A DNA stretch of 64,000 nt from a phage: assembly GCA_012401045.1 (NCBI GenBank), contig GCA_012401045.1_4704.2, one strand, 5' to 3'. The notes beneath the pieces were generated by a model that saw nothing but the letters and a program-made list of their open reading frames with translations, did no database searches and was not told the origin of the DNA. A program made the translations under genes and the position numbers. Shown here in pieces: positions 41,674-51,074 of the stretch (position 1 is its first letter; each line of letters begins with the position of its first letter).

Positions 41674-44466
41674 TTATCTTACGTTATTGCTGTTCTGCTG
41701 TTCGCTGAACCAACTGTACACCTTGAGATCGGTACCGTATTTCAATGCGATATACGCATTCAGCGCAGCACAGAACAAAGACGCGAATGCCCATATCAGC
41801 GAAGGATCAACATCTTCCGTTACCACCTGGAGAGTATTATCCGGTTCCCATGATGGAGAACTGTCCATGAACGTCGTGTACCATTCCCGCCGTTGTTCTT
41901 CGGTGGTAAAGTCGCTATGAGGTTCCAACGCTTCTTTTGCCAGACGTCGATATTCGAACATATGCGTTGCTAAAGCCGACGAGTTACCAGATTCGCCTTC
42001 ATAGTTCGGATCCACCGCATAACAGAGTTCTGTTGAATCCAACAAAGCAATCGCTTGTGTGATGCTGTCGGCAGTGCCTGCACCATAAAGCTCGATAGAC
42101 CGCGAAAGCTTTTCACAGAACGCATTTAACGCGGAAGGATTGGACACCTGAAGGTCAAGGCCTAATGTCCACGGATAGTTACTGAATACGCCCGTAAACC
42201 GCGGCATAACACCCAACAGATGTTGTCCGATTACAGCACGGTTATAAACAGCCCGGTTATAGACTTGAAACGCAGCCTCCAAAGCTTGGTTATAATGACG
42301 ACGAAGTTCGTCACGCGAGTTGCGGAATCTGTTTGCCGCAAGACTTGTGGCTGCGACGCTACAAACATCGTAATTGGTGGACGAGAGCACAGTTTCGTTA
42401 AGATCGAACGATTCCTGTTTCAACGATCCGCTAACCGCTGCTGCTTCGCTGTTTGCTTTATCGACAACAGTACTCAAAGCGTTGATGTAACGTTTAGCTC
42501 GGACTTCCAGCCATTGTGCGATACCGAGAATATCCACCGCGGCTTTAGCAAGATCGCGTGCATTCACGATTTCGTTCTTCAACGCCCCTAAACCTTTATT
42601 TTCAGGCAATGAGGCTTGTTGACGAATCATGCTGTTCAACATGGTAAGCAGATTATCCAACTCATGTCCACTGACCTTGTTACGTGCATCGGTAATAGGA
42701 CCTTGCAGGAATTTACGGCAACCATCGTTGTATCGAATCAGTTTATCCACATCGATAGATTCGTTCGTGGATTCCTTGAACTGATTCTTCAATTCTTCAC
42801 GGTAGTCATGGATTTCACTTGCGAGATTATCGATAGTGATACCATCATATCCAAGAAGAACTTTATTGAAGTTACCTTTCTCGAATGCAAGAGCAAGACC
42901 TTCACGAATCTTAGCGAGTTTGTCCTGATCAAGTTCACGACCGTTCGATAGCTCTTTCACTTCCGAGCTGATTAATGCCGAAACGTTACCCAGATTGTCG
43001 GTAACTCCTTTGAACGCTCCCGACCAGATCGTTCCTGCTTCAGCGTATTTCGCAATGGTCTGAATACCGACGGTATGCAACGACGCTAAACGTTTCTTCG
43101 TGCCTTCGGTAAGCAGTGCGTCTTTAGCTCGCGTAAGTTGACTGTTATTAGCTTCCGCTTGCTGGATTGCTGCTTTCGCACTTCCATTACGCCAGCTCTT
43201 AACTAACCAATCAACCAAACGTTTTAGGATGTTGACGGTGTATTCCATTGTCCGCCGTAACGTTTCCCACGCGCTTTCTGCGGTATAAATGCCGTACCCT
43301 TCCATCTTCGTTGGGTCAAAGAAACCTTCCTGCACGAGATCAGTACGTGTGTAGCCATCAGCAGCTTCTACTTCCGCCTGGGTTTTATCCCAGAAGTCGT
43401 CGCTCTTTGCAGCAATCGCTGTATCTTTAACGTCCAGGATGATCTGACCAACCGTTTGTGCAAACAGCAAGGCCGCACGTACCGATTGTGCGAACATCCG
43501 CTGATATTTGATTCGAACGCATTGCATCTGGGTTAGCAGATTCAGTTGTGCGATCCCATCCAAGGTGCTATCCTGAGCAAGCCCTTCGGCTTTAGTGATA
43601 ACCTGTTTTACACGTTCAGCGACATCACCGTACTGCTGGCAAACATCTCGCAGAATACGTGCCGCGAAGACCCCGGTACCGATATAGTTCAATAGGTCTT
43701 TTAACGACCATTCGGTCGGACAATCGGTCGGCGCAATAGGGAGTAAGCAACCATCACCGTCCATGAATCTCTCTAATGCGCTAATATCCTGATTTTCTAC
43801 GCTCATGGGGATATCGACATCAGCCGCTTGCAGATCCAGCATCTGTTGTAGGATGTTGGTATCGGCTTGTACAAGCGTCACAAGCGCTTGGCTGTGTGCG
43901 ATTATTGGTAACGCAGGTGACCATACTGCAGCAAGCTTGTCGGCGTGACGTTGAATGGCATACCCCATATCCTCGATCACATCGGGATGCTCGATAACCC
44001 CCTGAAGCGTTTGATGTAGCTCACCGAGTTGCTGAGACAGATCGACCATCATGGTGTTGAAGGTTTCACCATCCTCTTTGTGGTTGTCCAGACGCTCGAG
44101 TTCATGTCGAAGCAATGTAACGAGCTGTCCGTTGCCTTCTTGCTTCAGCTTGCTTTCCATTAACGTAATGGCTTTATCGACGATCTGACACGCTTCACGA
44201 AAACCGGTTGTGGAAGGAAGCTCTGTCCATAACGCCAACGGTTTACCGTCAAGGGCTTCCGGCATCGATAAAGAAAGCATAGACAGTTGTTGACGTGATA
44301 CTTGCTGTTCACGGTGTAATGTTTCTTTTAACGCCAGGAGATCGTCAAGAAACGCGCCGTTAAGGGTGGTCGTACGCGGTGTTGAATTAATACCGTCAGT
44401 TAACGATTCAAGCACCAGGAGACCGTTATCAGCTGAAGAGAGTCCCGCGGCAAGATATTTGTTCAT
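41674..44466 (-). CDS. large virion-type protein (~930 aa); family-like EGF helix motif
   Basis: ORF track; start moved to ATG (MNKYLAAG) after GGAG; motif DLVQEGFFD...WETLRRTMEYTVNILKRLVDWL. Confidence 0.9.
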   Translation of the reverse strand: MNKYLAAGLSSADNGLLVLESLTDGINSTPRTTTLNGAFLDDLLALKETLHREQQVSRQQLSMLSLSMPEALDGKPLALWTELPSTTGFREACQIVDKAITLMESKLKQEGNGQLVTLLRHELERLDNHKEDGETFNTMMVDLSQQLGELHQTLQGVIEHPDVIEDMGYAIQRHADKLAAVWSPALPIIAHSQALVTLVQADTNILQQMLDLQAADVDIPMSVENQDISALERFMDGDGCLLPIAPTDCPTEWSLKDLLNYIGTGVFAARILRDVCQQYGDVAERVKQVITKAEGLAQDSTLDGIAQLNLLTQMQCVRIKYQRMFAQSVRAALLFAQTVGQIILDVKDTAIAAKSDDFWDKTQAEVEAADGYTRTDLVQEGFFDPTKMEGYGIYTAESAWETLRRTMEYTVNILKRLVDWLVKSWRNGSAKAAIQQAEANNSQLTRAKDALLTEGTKKRLASLHTVGIQTIAKYAEAGTIWSGAFKGVTDNLGNVSALISSEVKELSNGRELDQDKLAKIREGLALAFEKGNFNKVLLGYDGITIDNLASEIHDYREELKNQFKESTNESIDVDKLIRYNDGCRKFLQGPITDARNKVSGHELDNLLTMLNSMIRQQASLPENKGLGALKNEIVNARDLAKAAVDILGIAQWLEVRAKRYINALSTVVDKANSEAAAVSGSLKQESFDLNETVLSSTNYDVCSVAATSLAANRFRNSRDELRRHYNQALEAAFQVYNRAVYNRAVIGQHLLGVMPRFTGVFSNYPWTLGLDLQVSNPSALNAFCEKLSRSIELYGAGTADSITQAIALLDSTELCYAVDPNYEGESGNSSALATHMFEYRRLAKEALEPHSDFTTEEQRREWYTTFMDSSPSWEPDNTLQVVTEDVDPSLIWAFASLFCAALNAYIALKYGTDLKVYSWFSEQQNSNNVR

Positions 44467-44481
44467 AAAACACTCCGTTGG

Positions 44482-44512
44482 CCTAGGGGAAGGCTGAAAA
44501 CCTTCCCCTAGG
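44482..44512 (-). terminator. perfect 12-bp inverted repeat hairpin (CCTAGGGGAAGG-CTGAAAA-CCTTCCCCTAGG), separate class
   Basis: Between stop of 44526-47321 and start of 41674-44466, about 15 nt upstream of the start codon. Confidence 0.45.
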
Positions 44513-44525
44513 GTTATAAACACAA

Positions 44526-47321
44526 TTAAGCTAATTTACCGAAACCGGCTTTCTGCAGTTTCTCGTTGATGATTTTCGCTTCAGCGAAGACGTAATCACG
44601 ATACGCAGTGACTAATCCGTCCACCCGTGAACGCAAGGCTTCTTCGAAGCTATACCACGCAGCGATTTCACGAATCTGTGCGTTGATATAATCAACGGTT
44701 GAGCGAAGCTCGGTTGCGTTTTCTTGCGGAATGGCTTTCACCTGGCGAGCAACGTCATTTAAACGACGGAACTGTGTTTCGATTTCTTTAAACTTACTGT
44801 CGGCAAGTTTGCTGAATTCGTCACCAGAACGGGTAAATAACAGATAGCTGTTGCCGTCAAGTGCGGTCGCTAACTGCTGAAGTACGTTGGTGTCCGGATA
44901 CACAGGAGTACCGCTTTGCAGTACTTTCTCACCGAATTCCGCGAAGTCCTTCGGTGGTAAGTGTGCAGACGTTGTCAATTCGTTGAAACGGAAAGTCAGC
45001 GAATTATCATACAGCATCCGGTACGCTTCCATACCCTGTTTCATGGTACCGGCCAGGTTAGCCAGACGCGGAGCAATCTCGCCTTCTTTAGCGCGTTTCT
45101 GGTCTTCTAACGCCCCTTCGAGTTCTTTACACTGGTCGTTCAGATACACGATACGATCAGGACGTAGACGACGCATCTCACGAAGAATAGTATCCAGCTT
45201 ACCTTCCTGGAAATAACCCAACGTTAAAGACGTACACGCTTGCTGAAGACGATCGAACACCGGTAAGGTTACCATCTCCTTACGGATACCATCAACAATC
45301 GCAGAAACAGCCGAAAGTTTCTGTTCTGTAGTCAATGGAACATCAGAGGCCGACTTGCTGGGTGCACCAACAACGTTACGCATTGCGTCGGTATCCTCGG
45401 TTTTATCAACCTCTTTACGAACATGCTCATCAGGAACATAAACGTTCGCGTTACGTTTCGCCTGCTTGATGGCGTCGTTGGCCGCTTTTTCGGTGGCTGC
45501 TACGCTATCAGCACGTTTCTTCAAGAGTTCAATAATCCAGAGCAACAGACGACGAATCGCAGTATAGGCCGTCGTGATGATGACACCGATAACAGCCATC
45601 TTCATGATACCGAACGATTCCATGGTCGGCTCTAACGCTTGGTCTGGCATATACCGTTCACGCAGCTCCAGATAGATCTGCTCATCTGGTTTGCTGACCT
45701 CACCACGATGCGAAGTACGATAGATGGCTTCGTCAATCTCAACAAGATCTTTGCGGGCCTGGCGATCGGATTCTGTTAAGTAAGCACAACCGGATACGTC
45801 GTCTTCGAAGCTTAAGAATTTGAAAAAGTCACTGACGTCGATCTTGATCTTCTTCGCTTCATTATCGACATCGATAACATCTTTTTTCTGTGCCTGATAT
45901 TCCGCTTTGATGTCGTTCACCGGCTTCAACGCACGTTCTTTTAATGCCTGCACGATCTGTTTCCAGTCGGCGTCACGCTCAAGAACAAGGAAGTAATTCT
46001 TGAGTTCAAAAGCACGGTAACGCGCAACGAGTTGTTCTACCTGAATATGAGCGAGTTGCACATCCATCAGCCAACGCGACATTGCTGAGATCAAACGGCT
46101 ATAAGCAAGCAATGTCTGATATGTTAGCTTCATGTGCTTTTCGTACAGCTCAATATCGCCGTCTTGAATATCAGCCGTTGGGTTCATTTCCTTCGTTGCT
46201 TTGAAGATCTGTTCGGCCTCATTTAACGTTTGTTCGAATTTGACTTCATTAAACGTGTCAAACGGTTCAGCCAACTCCATCATTCGATCGTGAAGCTCAC
46301 GAACCCAGGCTTCCTTATTGTTGCGAATAGCTGCGTCATCGTGAAGTTCAGTTTGATGTTTCTGTACCCATTCTTCGACGATATCAGCGGCGGCAACAAT
46401 TCCTGTACCATCGGAAACTAACGGAACAACTCCAGCAAGTACGCCTACACACGCCGGGGTTTTCCAATAATCGTTCAAAGCGTTTCTGAATTCAACGATG
46501 GATTGTACGTTTGGTACCGTATCCAAAAACGTACTGCCGTTACGGCTCATTGTCGTTACGATATCAGCGAATTCCTTCTGCTTAGCGGTAACAAAAGGAA
46601 CCAGGACCATAAGCCATTCAGCAACCGACTTCGCTTTCTCTTTCAGATTTTTGTCAGCGATTTCCTTAAGGTTTATCGCACCACCGTAACCTGCAAGCTC
46701 TTTATATACGTCGCTAAGGGTCATCTGTTTATCCAACATTTCTTTGAAACGTGGGTAATCAGCACCTAACGCATCGACAATATCGTTGATTACGTCATCA
46801 GTTGTTGCGATAAACTTCTTCGTATCAACGTTTGAATATTTCCAGACGTATCGTACTGCTTTCTTGATTCCTGCAAAGATAAACGCCCAGATACGCTTGA
46901 TGAGTTCCCAGACTTTCTTCGCGCCATCGACAAACAGTTTAGAGACCTTGGCAACGAATCCTTCCTGCACCAATTCAACGCCGTTACGTGATGGGATTTC
47001 CGTGAAGAAAGCATCCGGCAGTTGTTTCGGGAATGCGTCACCAAGACGCATACGCAGTTCCGGTACATCAGCACGAGAAATACCGCGTGTTACTAATTGT
47101 TCGTGAAGACGAACGTTTTCTTCACCAGAGGTCACGAATTCGTCAACATCGAAGGAGACCATTGTTTCCTGATCTTCGGTGGTAACGACGCTTGAACCAT
47201 CACTGGTTTGGATGTCTTCGTCAGGGAATGCCATGAGCATACCGTGACGCATTTCAACCACCCCGTAATCGGTTGCTAAACCGAATTCGTTGTGGTCTGG
47301 GGTAATAACTGGGATACTCAT
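44526..47321 (-). CDS. large virion-type protein (931 aa); N-terminal region homologous to paralog family
   Basis: ORF track; AAGGAG RBS; motif ELVQEGFVAKVSKLFVDGAKKVWELIKRIWAFIF. Confidence 0.9.
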   Translation of the reverse strand: MSIPVITPDHNEFGLATDYGVVEMRHGMLMAFPDEDIQTSDGSSVVTTEDQETMVSFDVDEFVTSGEENVRLHEQLVTRGISRADVPELRMRLGDAFPKQLPDAFFTEIPSRNGVELVQEGFVAKVSKLFVDGAKKVWELIKRIWAFIFAGIKKAVRYVWKYSNVDTKKFIATTDDVINDIVDALGADYPRFKEMLDKQMTLSDVYKELAGYGGAINLKEIADKNLKEKAKSVAEWLMVLVPFVTAKQKEFADIVTTMSRNGSTFLDTVPNVQSIVEFRNALNDYWKTPACVGVLAGVVPLVSDGTGIVAAADIVEEWVQKHQTELHDDAAIRNNKEAWVRELHDRMMELAEPFDTFNEVKFEQTLNEAEQIFKATKEMNPTADIQDGDIELYEKHMKLTYQTLLAYSRLISAMSRWLMDVQLAHIQVEQLVARYRAFELKNYFLVLERDADWKQIVQALKERALKPVNDIKAEYQAQKKDVIDVDNEAKKIKIDVSDFFKFLSFEDDVSGCAYLTESDRQARKDLVEIDEAIYRTSHRGEVSKPDEQIYLELRERYMPDQALEPTMESFGIMKMAVIGVIITTAYTAIRRLLLWIIELLKKRADSVAATEKAANDAIKQAKRNANVYVPDEHVRKEVDKTEDTDAMRNVVGAPSKSASDVPLTTEQKLSAVSAIVDGIRKEMVTLPVFDRLQQACTSLTLGYFQEGKLDTILREMRRLRPDRIVYLNDQCKELEGALEDQKRAKEGEIAPRLANLAGTMKQGMEAYRMLYDNSLTFRFNELTTSAHLPPKDFAEFGEKVLQSGTPVYPDTNVLQQLATALDGNSYLLFTRSGDEFSKLADSKFKEIETQFRRLNDVARQVKAIPQENATELRSTVDYINAQIREIAAWYSFEEALRSRVDGLVTAYRDYVFAEAKIINEKLQKAGFGKLA

Positions 47322-47758
47322 GCATTCTCTCCTTGCAGTGCGTTAGCGAAAGCCGTTGCGAGTTGCGCAACCAGCTTAGGATCAACACCTTCGATAACGT
47401 CGGGCAGCCCTGCGGTTTCTTGGTCACGAACGGCGGAGGCTAATAACAGCATGGTTTCAGGTGCGGTCGGCTCATGCACCATGCGGTAACGCAGGCACCA
47501 GAAGTAGCGGGCAACGTCTAACGCATCGGCCAGCCCAATAACCAGTACCTTGTTCAGCTTATCCAGCCCTTCACGGATTTTAGGGAGATGTTCGCGAACG
47601 AAAATGCTATCTGCGGTCAGATCTTCTTTTTCAGCGAATACGGGCATGCTGTAACCAGCGATATAACCTGCGGCAATACTTAGCGCACGGGTCTGTTGTT
47701 CGGCTGGGAAATCACGTACCAGGTCTTTCAGCTGAACGGCGAAATCAGAAATATTCAT
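47318..47758 (-). CDS. hypothetical protein (146 aa)
   Basis: ORF track; AAAGGAA RBS. Confidence 0.75.
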   Translation of the reverse strand: MNISDFAVQLKDLVRDFPAEQQTRALSIAAGYIAGYSMPVFAEKEDLTADSIFVREHLPKIREGLDKLNKVLVIGLADALDVARYFWCLRYRMVHEPTAPETMLLLASAVRDQETAGLPDVIEGVDPKLVAQLATAFANALQGENA

Positions 47759-47790: not shown

Positions 47791-49101
47791 TTAGGCGATA
47801 ATGGAGTCAAGAGTCGCTGCGGTTTTGAACAGATCGTTGTTCATTGTAGAAGAAAGGACTTGCTGAATTTCTTCCTGTTTAACCGCTTTACGAACCCCAG
47901 GACGAAGGATAAGCGTAACCATCTGTGAAAAGGTACGATTATTGTTCATCGCACTCAGCGTTTCATCGATTGTTTTGATGGCATCCAGCGTCATGGAACG
48001 AACATCGCTTGGGATATCACGATCTTTCAAGCGTATAATTAAATCTTGTTTGATTTTACGGAATCGTTCCATGTCGTTATCGTAAATGCTGTATGTCGGA
48101 TCTAACCAAACAGAAAGCGCGGTTACAGCGACAACAACCAACACGCCGATAGCACCAACAGAAGCTAAACCTATCGCCATCATAGAAGCTATAGTAGCAT
48201 CCATGATGAAGGAGAGCCAGAACATCGTTTTGGACTTCACGGAGTCTTTGCTATAAAGCCGATACATTTTAGCAAGCCCGCTAACGAGATACTCCCCACC
48301 GCCATGACGCGTAGCGAACTGATCAGCCATGAATTCGGAAGCAACGTCGGTATATCGTCCAGCGTTGTTTACGTTTCTTAACTGCATCGCTCTGTTAGAC
48401 ACGTAAACCGTGTACCAGACACTACCGTCGTCTGAATCACTGATTTTGTCTACGTCGACGTTGGTATCCAACGTTTTGTTTAACGCTTTCGCCAGTTCGA
48501 TACGTTTTACCTTATCGGTTGTCCCCAACAGTTCACGCTGTACGGTCATGATTGAGGCTTCGACACGAACCGTTTCCGACAATGTTTCAAGGAAGGTAAA
48601 TGCGTGCCCGATTTCATGCAGCATTATGGCTGCTTTTTCTTCCGGAAGAAAGGGTTCTGTCGCCGTTAGCAGTTCATACGTGATGGCAGAACGAATCTTC
48701 AATTCTTCAAAAATACCGTAAACACGACCTTTTTCTAAATCGACGTAACCGACAGGTGTATCTTTAATCTTCTTAAGGAGCGTAACACCATCAGCACCGC
48801 GCATCCATAACCGATGATAGTCTGCCAGGATTGTGTTGTTTGTCGAAATATCCGGCGGGTACACGTAGGCATTCATCCGGCCCATTTTCACGTCGACCGA
48901 GAATTCGATGTTCAACCCCGTATAGCGTTTAACCATCTCGGTTAAACGACCGTCCTTGAAAACGTTTAAAACCTCTTTTTTATCCAGTCCCTGTTTGCTT
49001 CTGAAGAACTCGGTCATTTCCTTGAACAAGGAACCATCTTGAAACTTGATGGCCTCCATCGTTAATTCGTCATGACCATACACGCGTTGTAGTAATGACA
49101 T
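47791..49101 (-). CDS. putative membrane-anchored zinc metalloprotease (HExxH)
   Basis: ORF track; motif MLHEIGHAF; hydrophobic stretch FWLSFIMDATIASMMAIGLASVGAIGVLVVVAVTALSVWL. Confidence 0.6.
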   Translation of the reverse strand: MSLLQRVYGHDELTMEAIKFQDGSLFKEMTEFFRSKQGLDKKEVLNVFKDGRLTEMVKRYTGLNIEFSVDVKMGRMNAYVYPPDISTNNTILADYHRLWMRGADGVTLLKKIKDTPVGYVDLEKGRVYGIFEELKIRSAITYELLTATEPFLPEEKAAIMLHEIGHAFTFLETLSETVRVEASIMTVQRELLGTTDKVKRIELAKALNKTLDTNVDVDKISDSDDGSVWYTVYVSNRAMQLRNVNNAGRYTDVASEFMADQFATRHGGGEYLVSGLAKMYRLYSKDSVKSKTMFWLSFIMDATIASMMAIGLASVGAIGVLVVVAVTALSVWLDPTYSIYDNDMERFRKIKQDLIIRLKDRDIPSDVRSMTLDAIKTIDETLSAMNNNRTFSQMVTLILRPGVRKAVKQEEIQQVLSSTMNNDLFKTAATLDSIIA

Positions 49102-49322
49102 TGTACACTCTCTAAATTTACGTAAATTTAAGGGCTAATGGATCGGCTGGCCGCACCAATCACAATGTGTCCGCTGCTATGCAACGGCATTCATAGAAAT
49201 ACCTTTTGACGGTAACATCACCGTTCATACCCCAAGCAATAAGAGTGGTCGGTTAAAAACAACAGAACGTGGGGATGATATAGAAAATCACCTTTTAACA
49301 CTTATTACGAGTTTATCAAGCC

Positions 49323-51074
49323 ATGAGCGAACAAGAACGAAAACCTAAGAAGAAACTGCTCGGTATTCAATGTCGACACATCAGCTATAACGAAGCGAAC
49401 GATGGCAGCAAGAACGACCTCATGATCGCAAAAGAGATCATGTTCTTTGATGACAATACGCAAGCGACGAACCTTCGCTTCTTTGAGAATTACAAACGTC
49501 CGTTTTGGGTGACGGTAGAGAGTAAACGTAAGAACAAATATAAAAAGGAAAGCGAGAAGCTCTCGCATGTGCGTCGCTACGATGTCCGCCAAAGCGAACT
49601 GGTTGAAAAGATCAGCTCGGTACTTTATAAAAGACGTGCTGACGATAACACCCGTTTACAGCAGCTTGCACGGAGTCCATACCTCTATGGAACGGACGTT
49701 AGCGCCAGCTGTTATTTAAAAACCCAGTACAACACAAAATGGCCGGAATACGTCGATAAATTACCCGCTTCCATTGCCTGTTTCGATATCGAAACCGACG
49801 TTGTCCACGGACACGGTAAGATCGTTTGTATGTCTATTACAATGGGATACAATGCGATACTTTGCTATACCAAGGACTTCGTTGGTCATATTCCGAATGC
49901 CATTGAGAAAACCCATGAGAAGATTCGATATTACCTGGCCGAACGTCTGAATACCAAAGAAGATCCCCACGCATTCGAAAAATATCAGTACGATGTTCGA
50001 ATCGTAGAAAGCCCGGCACAAGCGGTCATCCAATGCATGCAGAAGGTTCACGAATGGCAGCCGGATTATCTCCTTGGCTGGAATATCGCGTTCGATATTC
50101 CGCGCATGCTCCAGGCACTGAACGAGGAAGGGTATCGTCCCGAGGATGTTTTCTCCGATCCCCGTATACCACCTAAATATCGTATTGCTCGCTGGGTACC
50201 ACCGAAGACCGACAAGGTATCTGCTTCAGGTCGTAAAACCAACCTTACCCTTGAGCAAACCTGGCCGATGTTTTATACGATGGCTACGTATCAGGTTATG
50301 GATGCGATGTGTGGCTATAAGTTCGTTCGTTTAGGAAGACCGGATGAAGGACGCTATTCACTCGATGCGGTGTTAGAGCGAAATAAATGCCATACGAAAT
50401 TAAAAGCTATTCCTGGTACAGAGGGGTTCACGGAGCTTGCCTGGCACGAAGAGATGCAAACGAACCATCAAATCGACTACGGCGTATATAACCTTTGGGA
50501 TAACCAGGGTATTGAGGCGTTGGACCAGAAAACAAAAGACTATTCGATGACCATCCCTATCCGTTTAGCGGCGTCGGATTTGAAAGATTTCAGTTCTAAC
50601 CCTAAACGTATCTGCGATAAACTTTTCTTCGTTTATCTTAACCGTGGGGAAGTCATGGGATGTACCGCTGACGACATGACCCAGGAAGAAGATAAGTGGG
50701 TTATCTCACGAGCTGGACATATCGTCACATTACCATGCGATCTCATGGCTGACAACGGCATTCATCTCTTCTGGGATATGCCGAACCTGAGAAGTTATAT
50801 CCGTCTATTCGTTGCAGACCTTGACATTAGCAGTTCATACCCGAATGGGCAGATCCTGTTGAATCTATCCAGAGCGTGTGTTTTTCGCGAGCTCTCACGC
50901 ATTGAGGGCGTCTCTGACTATCAATTCAGGAAGTTAGGTATCAACTTTATTACCGGAGGTAAAACGAACGCTGTAGACTTCTGTAGAATCGTTTATAAAG
51001 CACCATCGATGTTTGAACTTTTAGAACATTTCGATGCAACGCGTCCAAAAGAGGAAGCGCGGACCATCGAATGA
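49323..51074 (+). CDS. family B DNA polymerase, N-terminal part (3'-5' exonuclease domain plus motifs A and probable B; no motif C)
   Basis: ORF track; Exo I FDIETD, Exo II NIAFD, Exo III YNLWD, motif A DLDISSSYPNG, possible motif B KLGINFITGG; protein ends ~35 aa later. Confidence 0.7.
   Translation: MSEQERKPKKKLLGIQCRHISYNEANDGSKNDLMIAKEIMFFDDNTQATNLRFFENYKRPFWVTVESKRKNKYKKESEKLSHVRRYDVRQSELVEKISSVLYKRRADDNTRLQQLARSPYLYGTDVSASCYLKTQYNTKWPEYVDKLPASIACFDIETDVVHGHGKIVCMSITMGYNAILCYTKDFVGHIPNAIEKTHEKIRYYLAERLNTKEDPHAFEKYQYDVRIVESPAQAVIQCMQKVHEWQPDYLLGWNIAFDIPRMLQALNEEGYRPEDVFSDPRIPPKYRIARWVPPKTDKVSASGRKTNLTLEQTWPMFYTMATYQVMDAMCGYKFVRLGRPDEGRYSLDAVLERNKCHTKLKAIPGTEGFTELAWHEEMQTNHQIDYGVYNLWDNQGIEALDQKTKDYSMTIPIRLAASDLKDFSSNPKRICDKLFFVYLNRGEVMGCTADDMTQEEDKWVISRAGHIVTLPCDLMADNGIHLFWDMPNLRSYIRLFVADLDISSSYPNGQILLNLSRACVFRELSRIEGVSDYQFRKLGINFITGGKTNAVDFCRIVYKAPSMFELLEHFDATRPKEEARTIE

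Follow-up and report, generated by a model that had tools for sequence, protein, structure and literature searches.

A predicted M48-type metalloprotease with a conserved hydrophobic hairpin, carried in the heads of phiKZ-type jumbo phages, as a candidate for ejection at infection

Here, we carried out several analyses of a 436-residue open reading frame (ORF) that lies on the minus strand, with an ATG start, at 47791..49101 of a 64,000-nucleotide stretch of phage DNA (contig GCA_012401045.1_4704.2; "the window" below means this whole stretch). The ORF is a member of PHROG 2767, a family of function unknown, and our results support well, at the level of the family, a prediction that it is an M48-like gluzincin with zinc ligands H162, H166 and E256 and catalytic base E163. 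Orthologs of the ORF are carried inside the phage head, and the family has a hydrophobic hairpin placed after the catalytic domain. The explanation we favour, tentatively and with confidence a little short of even, is that the protein is an ejected, membrane-inserting M48-type metalloprotease that would act early in infection.

Close and distant orthologs of the ORF were identified. The 4.5 kb around it has 94% nucleotide identity with Escherichia phage vB_EcoM_Goslar, a nucleus-forming jumbo phage (237 kb), and its product has 91% amino acid identity with Goslar gp067 (Goslar_00067) and 24–27% identity, over at least 94% of its length, with the orthologs in SPN3US and phiKZ. PHROG 2767 matches residues 12–432 with an E-value of 9e-83, and the chimallivirus core-genome table lists the corresponding gene as cg22, equating Goslar gp067 with phiKZ gp084 and RAY gp286. 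The features of the gene are as follows, with residue positions in the full-length numbering of the 436-residue ORF.

47791..49101, minus strand: the 436-residue ORF, ortholog of Goslar gp067, phiKZ gp84 and SPN3US gp45 (PHROG 2767, cg22)
49054..49101, minus strand: predicted N-terminal propeptide, residues 1–16, with the site T14-M15-E16/A17, based on conserved P1 and P3 residues, the SPN3US alignment and a Goslar peptide
48247..48924, minus strand: M48-like gluzincin catalytic domain, approximately residues 60–285, made up of a beta-sheet plus the active-site and Glu helices
48604..48618, minus strand: HEIGH, with predicted zinc ligands H162 and H166 and catalytic base E163, based on conservation and the ZMPSTE24 alignment
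48316..48336, minus strand: E256-F-M-A-D260-Q-F262, helix with the predicted third zinc ligand E256, based on conservation and the ZMPSTE24 alignment
48103..48228, minus strand: hydrophobic helical hairpin, residues 292–333, with predicted helices at about 291–314 and 317–332, based on an AlphaFold2 (AF2) model and hydropathy
47794..48084, minus strand: C-terminal helical domain, residues 340–436, with Y340-D341...R346 first and an NNDLF motif last, based on alignment and AF2

An earlier sequence-only reading of the window had drawn attention to an HEIGH motif and a hydrophobic segment of about 40 residues in this ORF, and both are confirmed, at residues 162–166 and 292–333, respectively. The motif is unlikely to have arisen by chance in a protein with just five His residues, as HExxH occurred in only 0.27% of 100,000 composition-preserving shuffles. 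The view that it is a chance occurrence in a hypothetical ORF, or that the ORF is not a real gene, would find some comfort in the lack of a Pfam or PDB sequence match for the single 436-residue protein; however, it is refuted by those shuffles together with the invariance of the motif in homologs, the mass spectrometry (MS) peptides known for the 91% identical Goslar protein, and the thousands of members in the PHROG 2767 family.

Evidence for an M48-type active site came from comparisons across the family. In an alignment of 40 homologs, the distant members of which are 22–30% identical, the residues H162, E163, G165, H166, E256, D260, G129, A158, G267 and R346 are invariant, with E256 and D260 sitting in the block s-E-(f/q)-l-A-D-q-F-A-t-R-h-G-a-G. 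In a larger set of 200 family members of 380–480 residues, HExxH is present in all 200, and 191 of them have E..(A/S)D.(F/Y) downstream of it, the median spacing being 95 residues. When all PDB sequences were searched with a hidden Markov model (HMM) built from the family, human ZMPSTE24 was matched (E-value 0.0025), in an alignment that pairs HEIGH with HELGH at 335–339 of ZMPSTE24 and the invariant Glu of the family (E256) with E415 in the helix RRFE415FQADAFA, the residue that serves ZMPSTE24 as third zinc ligand. Pfam Peptidase_M48 (PF01435) was matched at an E-value of 1 or lower by 23 of the 40 homologs, the best at 2.5e-5, and every other family by two at most; three long family members scored 18.5–19.1 bits with PF01435 against a cut-off of 20.3. 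Among NCBIfam models those for HtpX recurred most, with matches far below the curated cut-offs, and LoiP was also matched, all of these matches being scattered and weak. Matches in BFVD beyond the orthologs include proteins named "Zincin protease" and "Peptidase M48 domain-containing protein".

The AF2 model built on the alignment (predicted local distance difference test [pLDDT] score 80.7, predicted template modelling [pTM] score 0.81) consists of a beta-sheet with a long active-site helix and additional helices, with the hydrophobic stretch modelled as a helical hairpin and the C-terminal domain likewise helical, and its fold was scored as resembling solved M48 structures. The metalloprotease call therefore stands, an M48-type fold having been detected and HExxH being conserved across homologs. 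As regards its type, the proposal of an HtpX/M48-like enzyme gains family-level support from the invariant HExGH and E256/D260, the ZMPSTE24 alignment and the Peptidase_M48 matches, and the third ligand that had been anticipated downstream proved to be a Glu, E256. The SprT-like option did not hold, with matches to PF10263 in one of the 40 homologs (E-value 0.1) and to the NCBIfam SprT model in two (E-value 0.15), and a BFVD SprT match at an E-value of 2.5. Assignments to M50, reprolysin and Zincin_1, each found in no more than two of the 40 homologs in the Pfam scan, were rejected.

The second defining feature of the protein is its hydrophobic stretch of 42 residues, TMFWLSFIMDATIASMMAIGLASVGAIGVLVVVAVTALSVWL, which runs from TMFWLSF to LSVWL, has a maximum Kyte-Doolittle 19-residue mean (KD19) of 2.57 and includes 32 uncharged residues in a row. 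It is by far the most hydrophobic stretch among the 54 non-overlapping ORFs of at least 90 residues in the window, the runner-up having a KD19 of 1.93. Within the ORF the only segment with a KD19 above 1.6 is 294–336, C-terminal to the Glu helix; the hydropathy scan revealed none N-terminal to HExxH or in the interval from there to E256. A hairpin above the same KD19 value is present in 39 of the 40 homologs, with a median hydrophobic span of 37 residues and often a Gly or Pro near its middle, and the hydrophobicity recurs in 188 of 191 members of the larger homolog set. It is the hydrophobic character of the hairpin that is kept across homologs, not its sequence. The domain that follows opens with D341 and R346, both invariant, and Y340, present in at least 90% of the sequences. 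A second alignment revealed a comparable hydrophobic stretch in the homolog from Bacillus phage AgentSmith, which makes it unlikely that the protein has a role tied to the outer membrane or periplasm of Gram-negative bacteria.

When the AF2 model was compared with the PDB by Foldseek, the top matches, which were non-significant (E-values 0.6–3.3), were helical bundles, including the ClyA-family alpha pore-forming toxins MakA, AhlB and SmhB. Until toxins of that family insert into a membrane, their helical bundles keep a hydrophobic hairpin hidden. These matches to a model are probably noise, yet they echo the shielded hairpin proposed below.

That the family protein is carried inside the head is evident from its orthologs. 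The phiKZ ortholog, gp84, is annotated as a "structural head protein". MS of Goslar virions (2026 virion structure preprint, 10.64898/2026.04.21.720040) identified 19 peptides of gp067, including the HEIGH peptide, for a sequence coverage of 47%, and indicated about 48 copies per virion (range 32–76). The head of SPN3US likewise contains the ortholog gp45 (SPN3US_0045), from which a 20-residue N-terminal propeptide is taken off by gp245, the serine prohead protease, whose substrates number nine (PMC5694885, PMC10052503). That cut, A-S-E20/S, aligns exactly with E16 of the 436-residue ORF, giving a predicted site of T14-M15-E16/A17. Prohead proteases of the SPN3US kind are known to have the specificity (S/A/G)-x-E, and among the 40 homologs the aligned site has Glu at P1 in 38, Ser, Ala, Gly or Thr at P3 in 38, and Ala or Ser at P1' in 37. 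In addition, the AF2 model is disordered through the propeptide (pLDDT below 50), and the Goslar virion MS data (10.64898/2026.04.21.720040) contain a semi-tryptic gp067 peptide, AIKFQDGSLFKEMTEFFR, whose N-terminus is non-tryptic because it starts at A17, directly after E16. Residues 1–16 of the ORF are thus predicted to be a propeptide that is removed by the prohead protease. A role in lysis, one of the possibilities originally raised for the protein, fits poorly with a head component that is processed by the prohead protease in orthologs. The gene has an essential-like profile in phiKZ based on transposon insertion sequencing (TnSeq), which recovered no insertions in 1242 bp of orf84 after trimming, versus one per 42 bp genome-wide, and orf85, orf86 and orf87 were likewise insertion-free (PMC12676376).

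In the explanation we favour, the protease would be made late, along with the proteins of the inner-capsid vertex-binding complex whose genes follow immediately downstream, and would be carried in the head at roughly 50 copies with its hairpin (292–333) shielded within the capsid. On infection it would exit the head with the DNA, and the hairpin would insert into the host inner membrane or the membrane of the early-infection (EPI) vesicle. The catalytic and C-terminal domains would thereby be placed on one membrane face, and the protease would cut at least one phage or host substrate that lies close to the membrane and is required for infection to become established. The reasoning is that the capsid has no membrane, so that a hairpin retained in nearly all homologs in both sets is best accounted for if the protein encounters a membrane once it is outside the head. 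Also consistent with ejection is that chimalliviruses inject a set of proteins into a lipid vesicle. Further support comes from SPN3US gp47, encoded in the same cluster, which is essential and has been termed an ejection protein with a transmembrane (TM) helix by the authors who studied it; its C-terminal truncation leads to virions that are normal in look and composition and non-infectious (PMC5694885). Remodelling of host envelope proteins, as had been suggested for the ORF, is possible only after such an ejection from the virion. Potentially, the protease could be a phage-delivered membrane factor at entry, with its hairpins acting as wedges in the inner membrane or EPI-vesicle membrane and its active site cleaving a host or co-injected protein, and so help to form, stabilise or later open the vesicle in which the chimallivirus genome is sheltered until a phage nucleus has formed, a more specific proposal that we consider quite unlikely at present.

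Several observations weigh against ejection, or against parts of the case for it. Ejection, membrane insertion, zinc binding and cleavage are all inferred for this family, and Goslar gp208 and gp209 illustrate that proteins can be packaged in the virion yet not injected. The estimate of about 48 copies is close to the 55 copies of the vertex-binding-complex protein gp065, with which gp067 shares an operon, and both points are also compatible with retention of the protein at the inner vertices. As to processing, the A17 peptide of Goslar gp067 is represented by one spectrum match with two missed cleavages, and the Goslar virion preparation also held non-virion assemblies, such as chimallin and PhuZ. 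As to the M48 assignment, the 436-residue protein alone has no PF01435 match at an E-value of 1 or lower, single-sequence Pfam and PDB searches with it returned only weak SCAMP/CASP matches on the hydrophobic stretch, and Foldseek found no significant match to its AF2 model in the PDB.

Possibly, the protein is instead a second capsid-internal protease, located at or near the vertex-binding complex, that makes extra maturation cuts or degrades propeptides and scaffold for their exit, and is not itself ejected. Such a function, which the earlier sequence-only reading had also raised in the form of a second virion-maturation protease, has been proposed for exactly the PHROG 2767 family by Iyer et al. 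2021 (PMC7824862), and it is compatible with the packaging of the family protein in heads, its invariant catalytic residues, the operon it has in common with vertex-binding-complex proteins of similar stoichiometry, and the unassigned helical density that adjoins gp65 in the Goslar map (10.64898/2026.04.21.720040). We nevertheless consider it unlikely, since the 14 sites mapped in the nine head substrates of SPN3US were all ascribed to gp245, a protease that cleaves on the C-terminal side of Glu, and the study of protease mutants credits gp245 with the cleavage of SPN3US head proteins; no orphan cleavages were reported. A protease that remained in the capsid would also leave the family-wide hairpin without a purpose.

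Less probable still is that the protein functions in the membrane of the producer cell, be it in HtpX-like quality control, in anchoring capsid assembly to the inner membrane or in assisting lysis, and that its presence in virion preparations is incidental. The strong TM-like hairpin of the ORF, the occurrence of M48 relatives such as HtpX in the inner membrane along with the weak HtpX matches among NCBIfam models, and the contaminants in the Goslar virion preparation could all be accommodated by such a role. However, in SPN3US the prohead protease cuts the ortholog, which must therefore be inside proheads, the Goslar virion peptide starts at the homologous site, phiKZ gp84 is annotated as a head protein, and the gene resides in a head-protein operon, not among lysis genes. 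We give slightly less credence again to a purely structural, non-catalytic head protein that keeps the zincin fold, for instance as a disordered part of the vertex complex or as internal protein mass. A copy number near 55 and the linkage to the vertex-binding-complex operon are in keeping with that idea, as is the fact that the catalytic activity of the family is so far a prediction. The retention of H, E, H and the third-ligand Glu in 191–200 of 200 homologs with about 22–30% identity argues, to the contrary, for selection on catalysis; moreover, the Goslar map does not show the protein as an ordered component, and its sequence matches none of the solved PDB chains. An ejected, membrane-inserting protease hence remains our preferred, if tentative, explanation.

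The genomic context of the ORF ties it to the vertex-binding complex. It is the first of four tightly packed co-directional genes, which in order are 32 nt apart, overlap by 4 nt and are 2 nt apart, and it is separated from a divergent DNA-polymerase gene by an intergenic region that presumably holds promoters. No minus-strand terminator-like sites were found between 49101 and 41674. The neighbouring features are as follows.

47318..47758, minus strand: 146-residue gene, 32 nt downstream of the peptidase gene, ortholog of Goslar gp066 (phiKZ gp85), vertex-binding complex
44526..47321, minus strand: 931-residue gene, third in the operon after the 4-nt overlap, ortholog of Goslar gp065 (phiKZ gp86; SPN3US gp47 position), vertex-binding complex
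41674..44523, minus strand: 949-residue gene, fourth in the operon, ortholog of Goslar gp064
49102..49322, no strand: intergenic region of 221 bp separating the peptidase operon from the divergent DNA-polymerase gene
49323-51074, plus strand: DNA-polymerase gene

The divergent arrangement of polymerase and peptidase genes also exists in Goslar, phiKZ and SPN3US. In the Goslar cryo-electron microscopy (cryoEM) structure, gp066 and gp065 were modelled at 110 and 55 copies, respectively, as an inner vertex-binding complex at the 11 non-portal vertices, and gp064 (about 110 copies per virion) and gp067 were detected in the virion and are absent from the model (10.64898/2026.04.21.720040). Two of the downstream proteins have a single hydrophobic segment each, at residues 571–589 of the 931-residue protein (KD19 1.76) and at the C-terminus, residues 908–927, of the 949-residue protein (KD19 1.93); paralogy between these two proteins was not detectable. 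As BLASTP of the two proteins directly downstream of the peptidase detected no similarity to phiKZ gp85 and gp86, and the Pfam models are too narrow, their equivalence to gp85 and gp86 rests on position and on the published structural comparison of Goslar and phiKZ. Those models, PF25615 for gp85 and PF25617 for gp86, are the Pfam entries for these phiKZ vertex-binding proteins and are limited to close phiKZ relatives; phiKZ gp84 is without a Pfam family of its own, though far better conserved than gp85 or gp86.

The order of peptidase, small ORF and larger ORF is found in phiKZ, SPN3US/SEGD1 and Bacillus phage AgentSmith. It is common in metagenomic jumbo phages as well: an ORF of 110–190 residues begins no more than 150 nt after the peptidase in 69 of 79 loci, and a hydrophobic segment occurs in the third ORF at 47 of 63. 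Six loci (L061, L077, L021, L029, L040 and L084) have an ORF of 225–540 residues after the peptidase in place of one of about 145 residues, and in L061 the small ORF comes second, which demonstrates that the order of the module is not absolute.

Upstream of the operon, the ORF for the exonuclease part of the DNA polymerase (49323-51074, plus strand) is uninterrupted and encodes 583 residues. Its Goslar counterpart is split (locus L001, 4269-7779), with residues 1–499 corresponding to gp68 and residues 499–583 lying 1.76 kb away, unannotated. The Goslar insert contains the NUMOD1/HNH endonuclease gp69 and a match to the group I intron model RF00028 that, at 44.7 bits (E-value 1.4e-9), is just below the gathering score of 50. 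As read from its sequence, the phage in our window has an intron-less allele of the polymerase gene.

Searches beyond these phages indicate that the peptidase family is widespread. By tblastn, relatives of the ORF were found in 220 phage records, 188 of them with at least 80% query coverage, and they include phiKZ gp84 and many entries annotated as "virion structural protein". A search with the PHROG 2767 family profile against 1.8 billion representatives identified 3866 clusters at an E-value of 1e-3 or lower, and nearly all of the best 150 of the 3866 cluster representatives are 400–460 residues long. Among the viral contigs recovered with the profile, 69 of 80 are longer than 100 kb, and most are 180–320 kb.

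Some members depart from the common form. Five (P0142, P0157, P0169, P0195 and P0196) are 825–1237 residues long, with extra sequence fused to the peptidase module. In P0142, the N-terminal part matches the Pfam model of the PhiKZ_gp86 vertex-binding protein weakly and below threshold (E-value 0.007), and this long form could be a natural fusion with an operon partner or an artefact of gene calling. Bacillus phage AR9 has two peptidase paralogs, A0A172JHV9 and A0A172JI27, both named "Zincin protease" in BFVD, an apparent duplication in a relative with a Gram-positive host.

The family itself is already catalogued as a zincin, a head protein, a prohead-protease substrate and a core gene, and the 436-residue ORF adds a member to it. 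Iyer et al. 2021 (PMC7824862) named it a conserved uncharacterised "Group 1 zincin-like metallopeptidase" typical of phiKZ-type jumbo phages, and their example, AMR59696.1, is SEGD1_047, which is among the tblastn matches of our ORF. In the literature on phiKZ gp84/PHIKZ084 and on M48 in phiKZ no functional study was found, and the preprint of Mozumdar et al. 2024 does not mention gp84. The M48 assignment with E256 as third ligand was not found in the literature examined, outside of which stand Thomas et al. 2012 and the published version of Mozumdar et al. 2024, and it may not be new. The same applies, within the same literature, to the statement that the hairpin is family-wide, to the conservation of the cleavage site across the family together with the Goslar A17 peptide, and to the quantitative linkage with vertex-complex genes, each of which may likewise have been described before.

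The interest of the protein lies in what it could contribute to our understanding of jumbo phage infection. The set of proteins injected by nucleus-forming phages is incompletely known, and the literature examined names no phage factor that handles the membrane. The 436-residue ORF can be short-listed for the injected set as the product of a core gene that is apparently essential in phiKZ, with a low, defined head copy number and an intact zinc-protease site, and as the only strongly membrane-like protein in the 64-kb head-gene region. If the proposed role at the entry membrane were true, it would be the first enzyme tied to the biogenesis or resolution of a phage-induced membrane organelle, and a virion-borne member of a family known for quality control and remodelling of membrane proteins (HtpX, Ste24, Oma1). 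Were it instead a capsid-internal protease linked to the vertex-binding complex, a maturation pathway that is currently attributed to a single serine protease would gain a further enzyme. Predictions for the catalytic residues, the cleavage site and the hairpin boundaries are in place, so that the question can be addressed directly by experiment in Goslar, phiKZ and SPN3US.

Comparison with known systems places the protein closest to its orthologs Goslar gp067, phiKZ gp84 and SPN3US gp45, with which it has in common the motifs, the hairpin, the divergent DNA-polymerase neighbour and the downstream genes, and from which no functional difference is expected. Relative to characterised M48 enzymes, it is predicted to work like a membrane-tethered M48 peptidase with an architecture that is neither that of HtpX nor that of Ste24. 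Ste24 forms a barrel of seven TM helices with its active site facing an intramembrane chamber. In contrast to ZMPSTE24/Ste24p (MEROPS M48A), the phage protein has no N-terminal TM helix, its sole hydrophobic element is the hairpin after the Glu helix, its spacing from the HExxH to the Glu is 94 residues versus 80 in ZMPSTE24, and its family is carried in virions. HtpX (M48B), a quality-control protease of the bacterial inner membrane, begins with two TM helices and has a further hydrophobic pair that lies after HExxH and before the Glu ligand. Its likeness to the phage protein is that of a membrane-anchored M48 zinc protease, as the latter is predicted to be, whereas the phage hairpin is placed after the entire catalytic domain. 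BepA/YfgC differs in being periplasmic, with a C-terminal tetratricopeptide repeat domain and no membrane hairpin, and an outer-membrane role such as that of BepA is unlikely for the phage protein because its homologs also occur in Bacillus phages.

A different kind of parallel is provided by phage ejection proteins, which include gp14–16 of T7 and gp7, gp16 and gp20 of P22, with their membrane-inserting segments, as well as SPN3US gp47. These proteins are stored in the head, have N-terminal propeptides for processing or targeting, possess TM-like segments and are needed for infectivity, not for assembly. The 436-residue protein may work like them, an analogy only, as they have neither a peptidase domain nor a sequence relationship to it. 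Lastly, the C1 domain of the coliphage N4 virion RNA polymerase (PMC13434306) is described as having a zincin-type HExxH and, as we propose for the protein studied here, is packaged in the virion and expelled into the host. The likeness is one of description, since the N4 protein is a 3500-residue polymerase with no hairpin from a different phage lineage.

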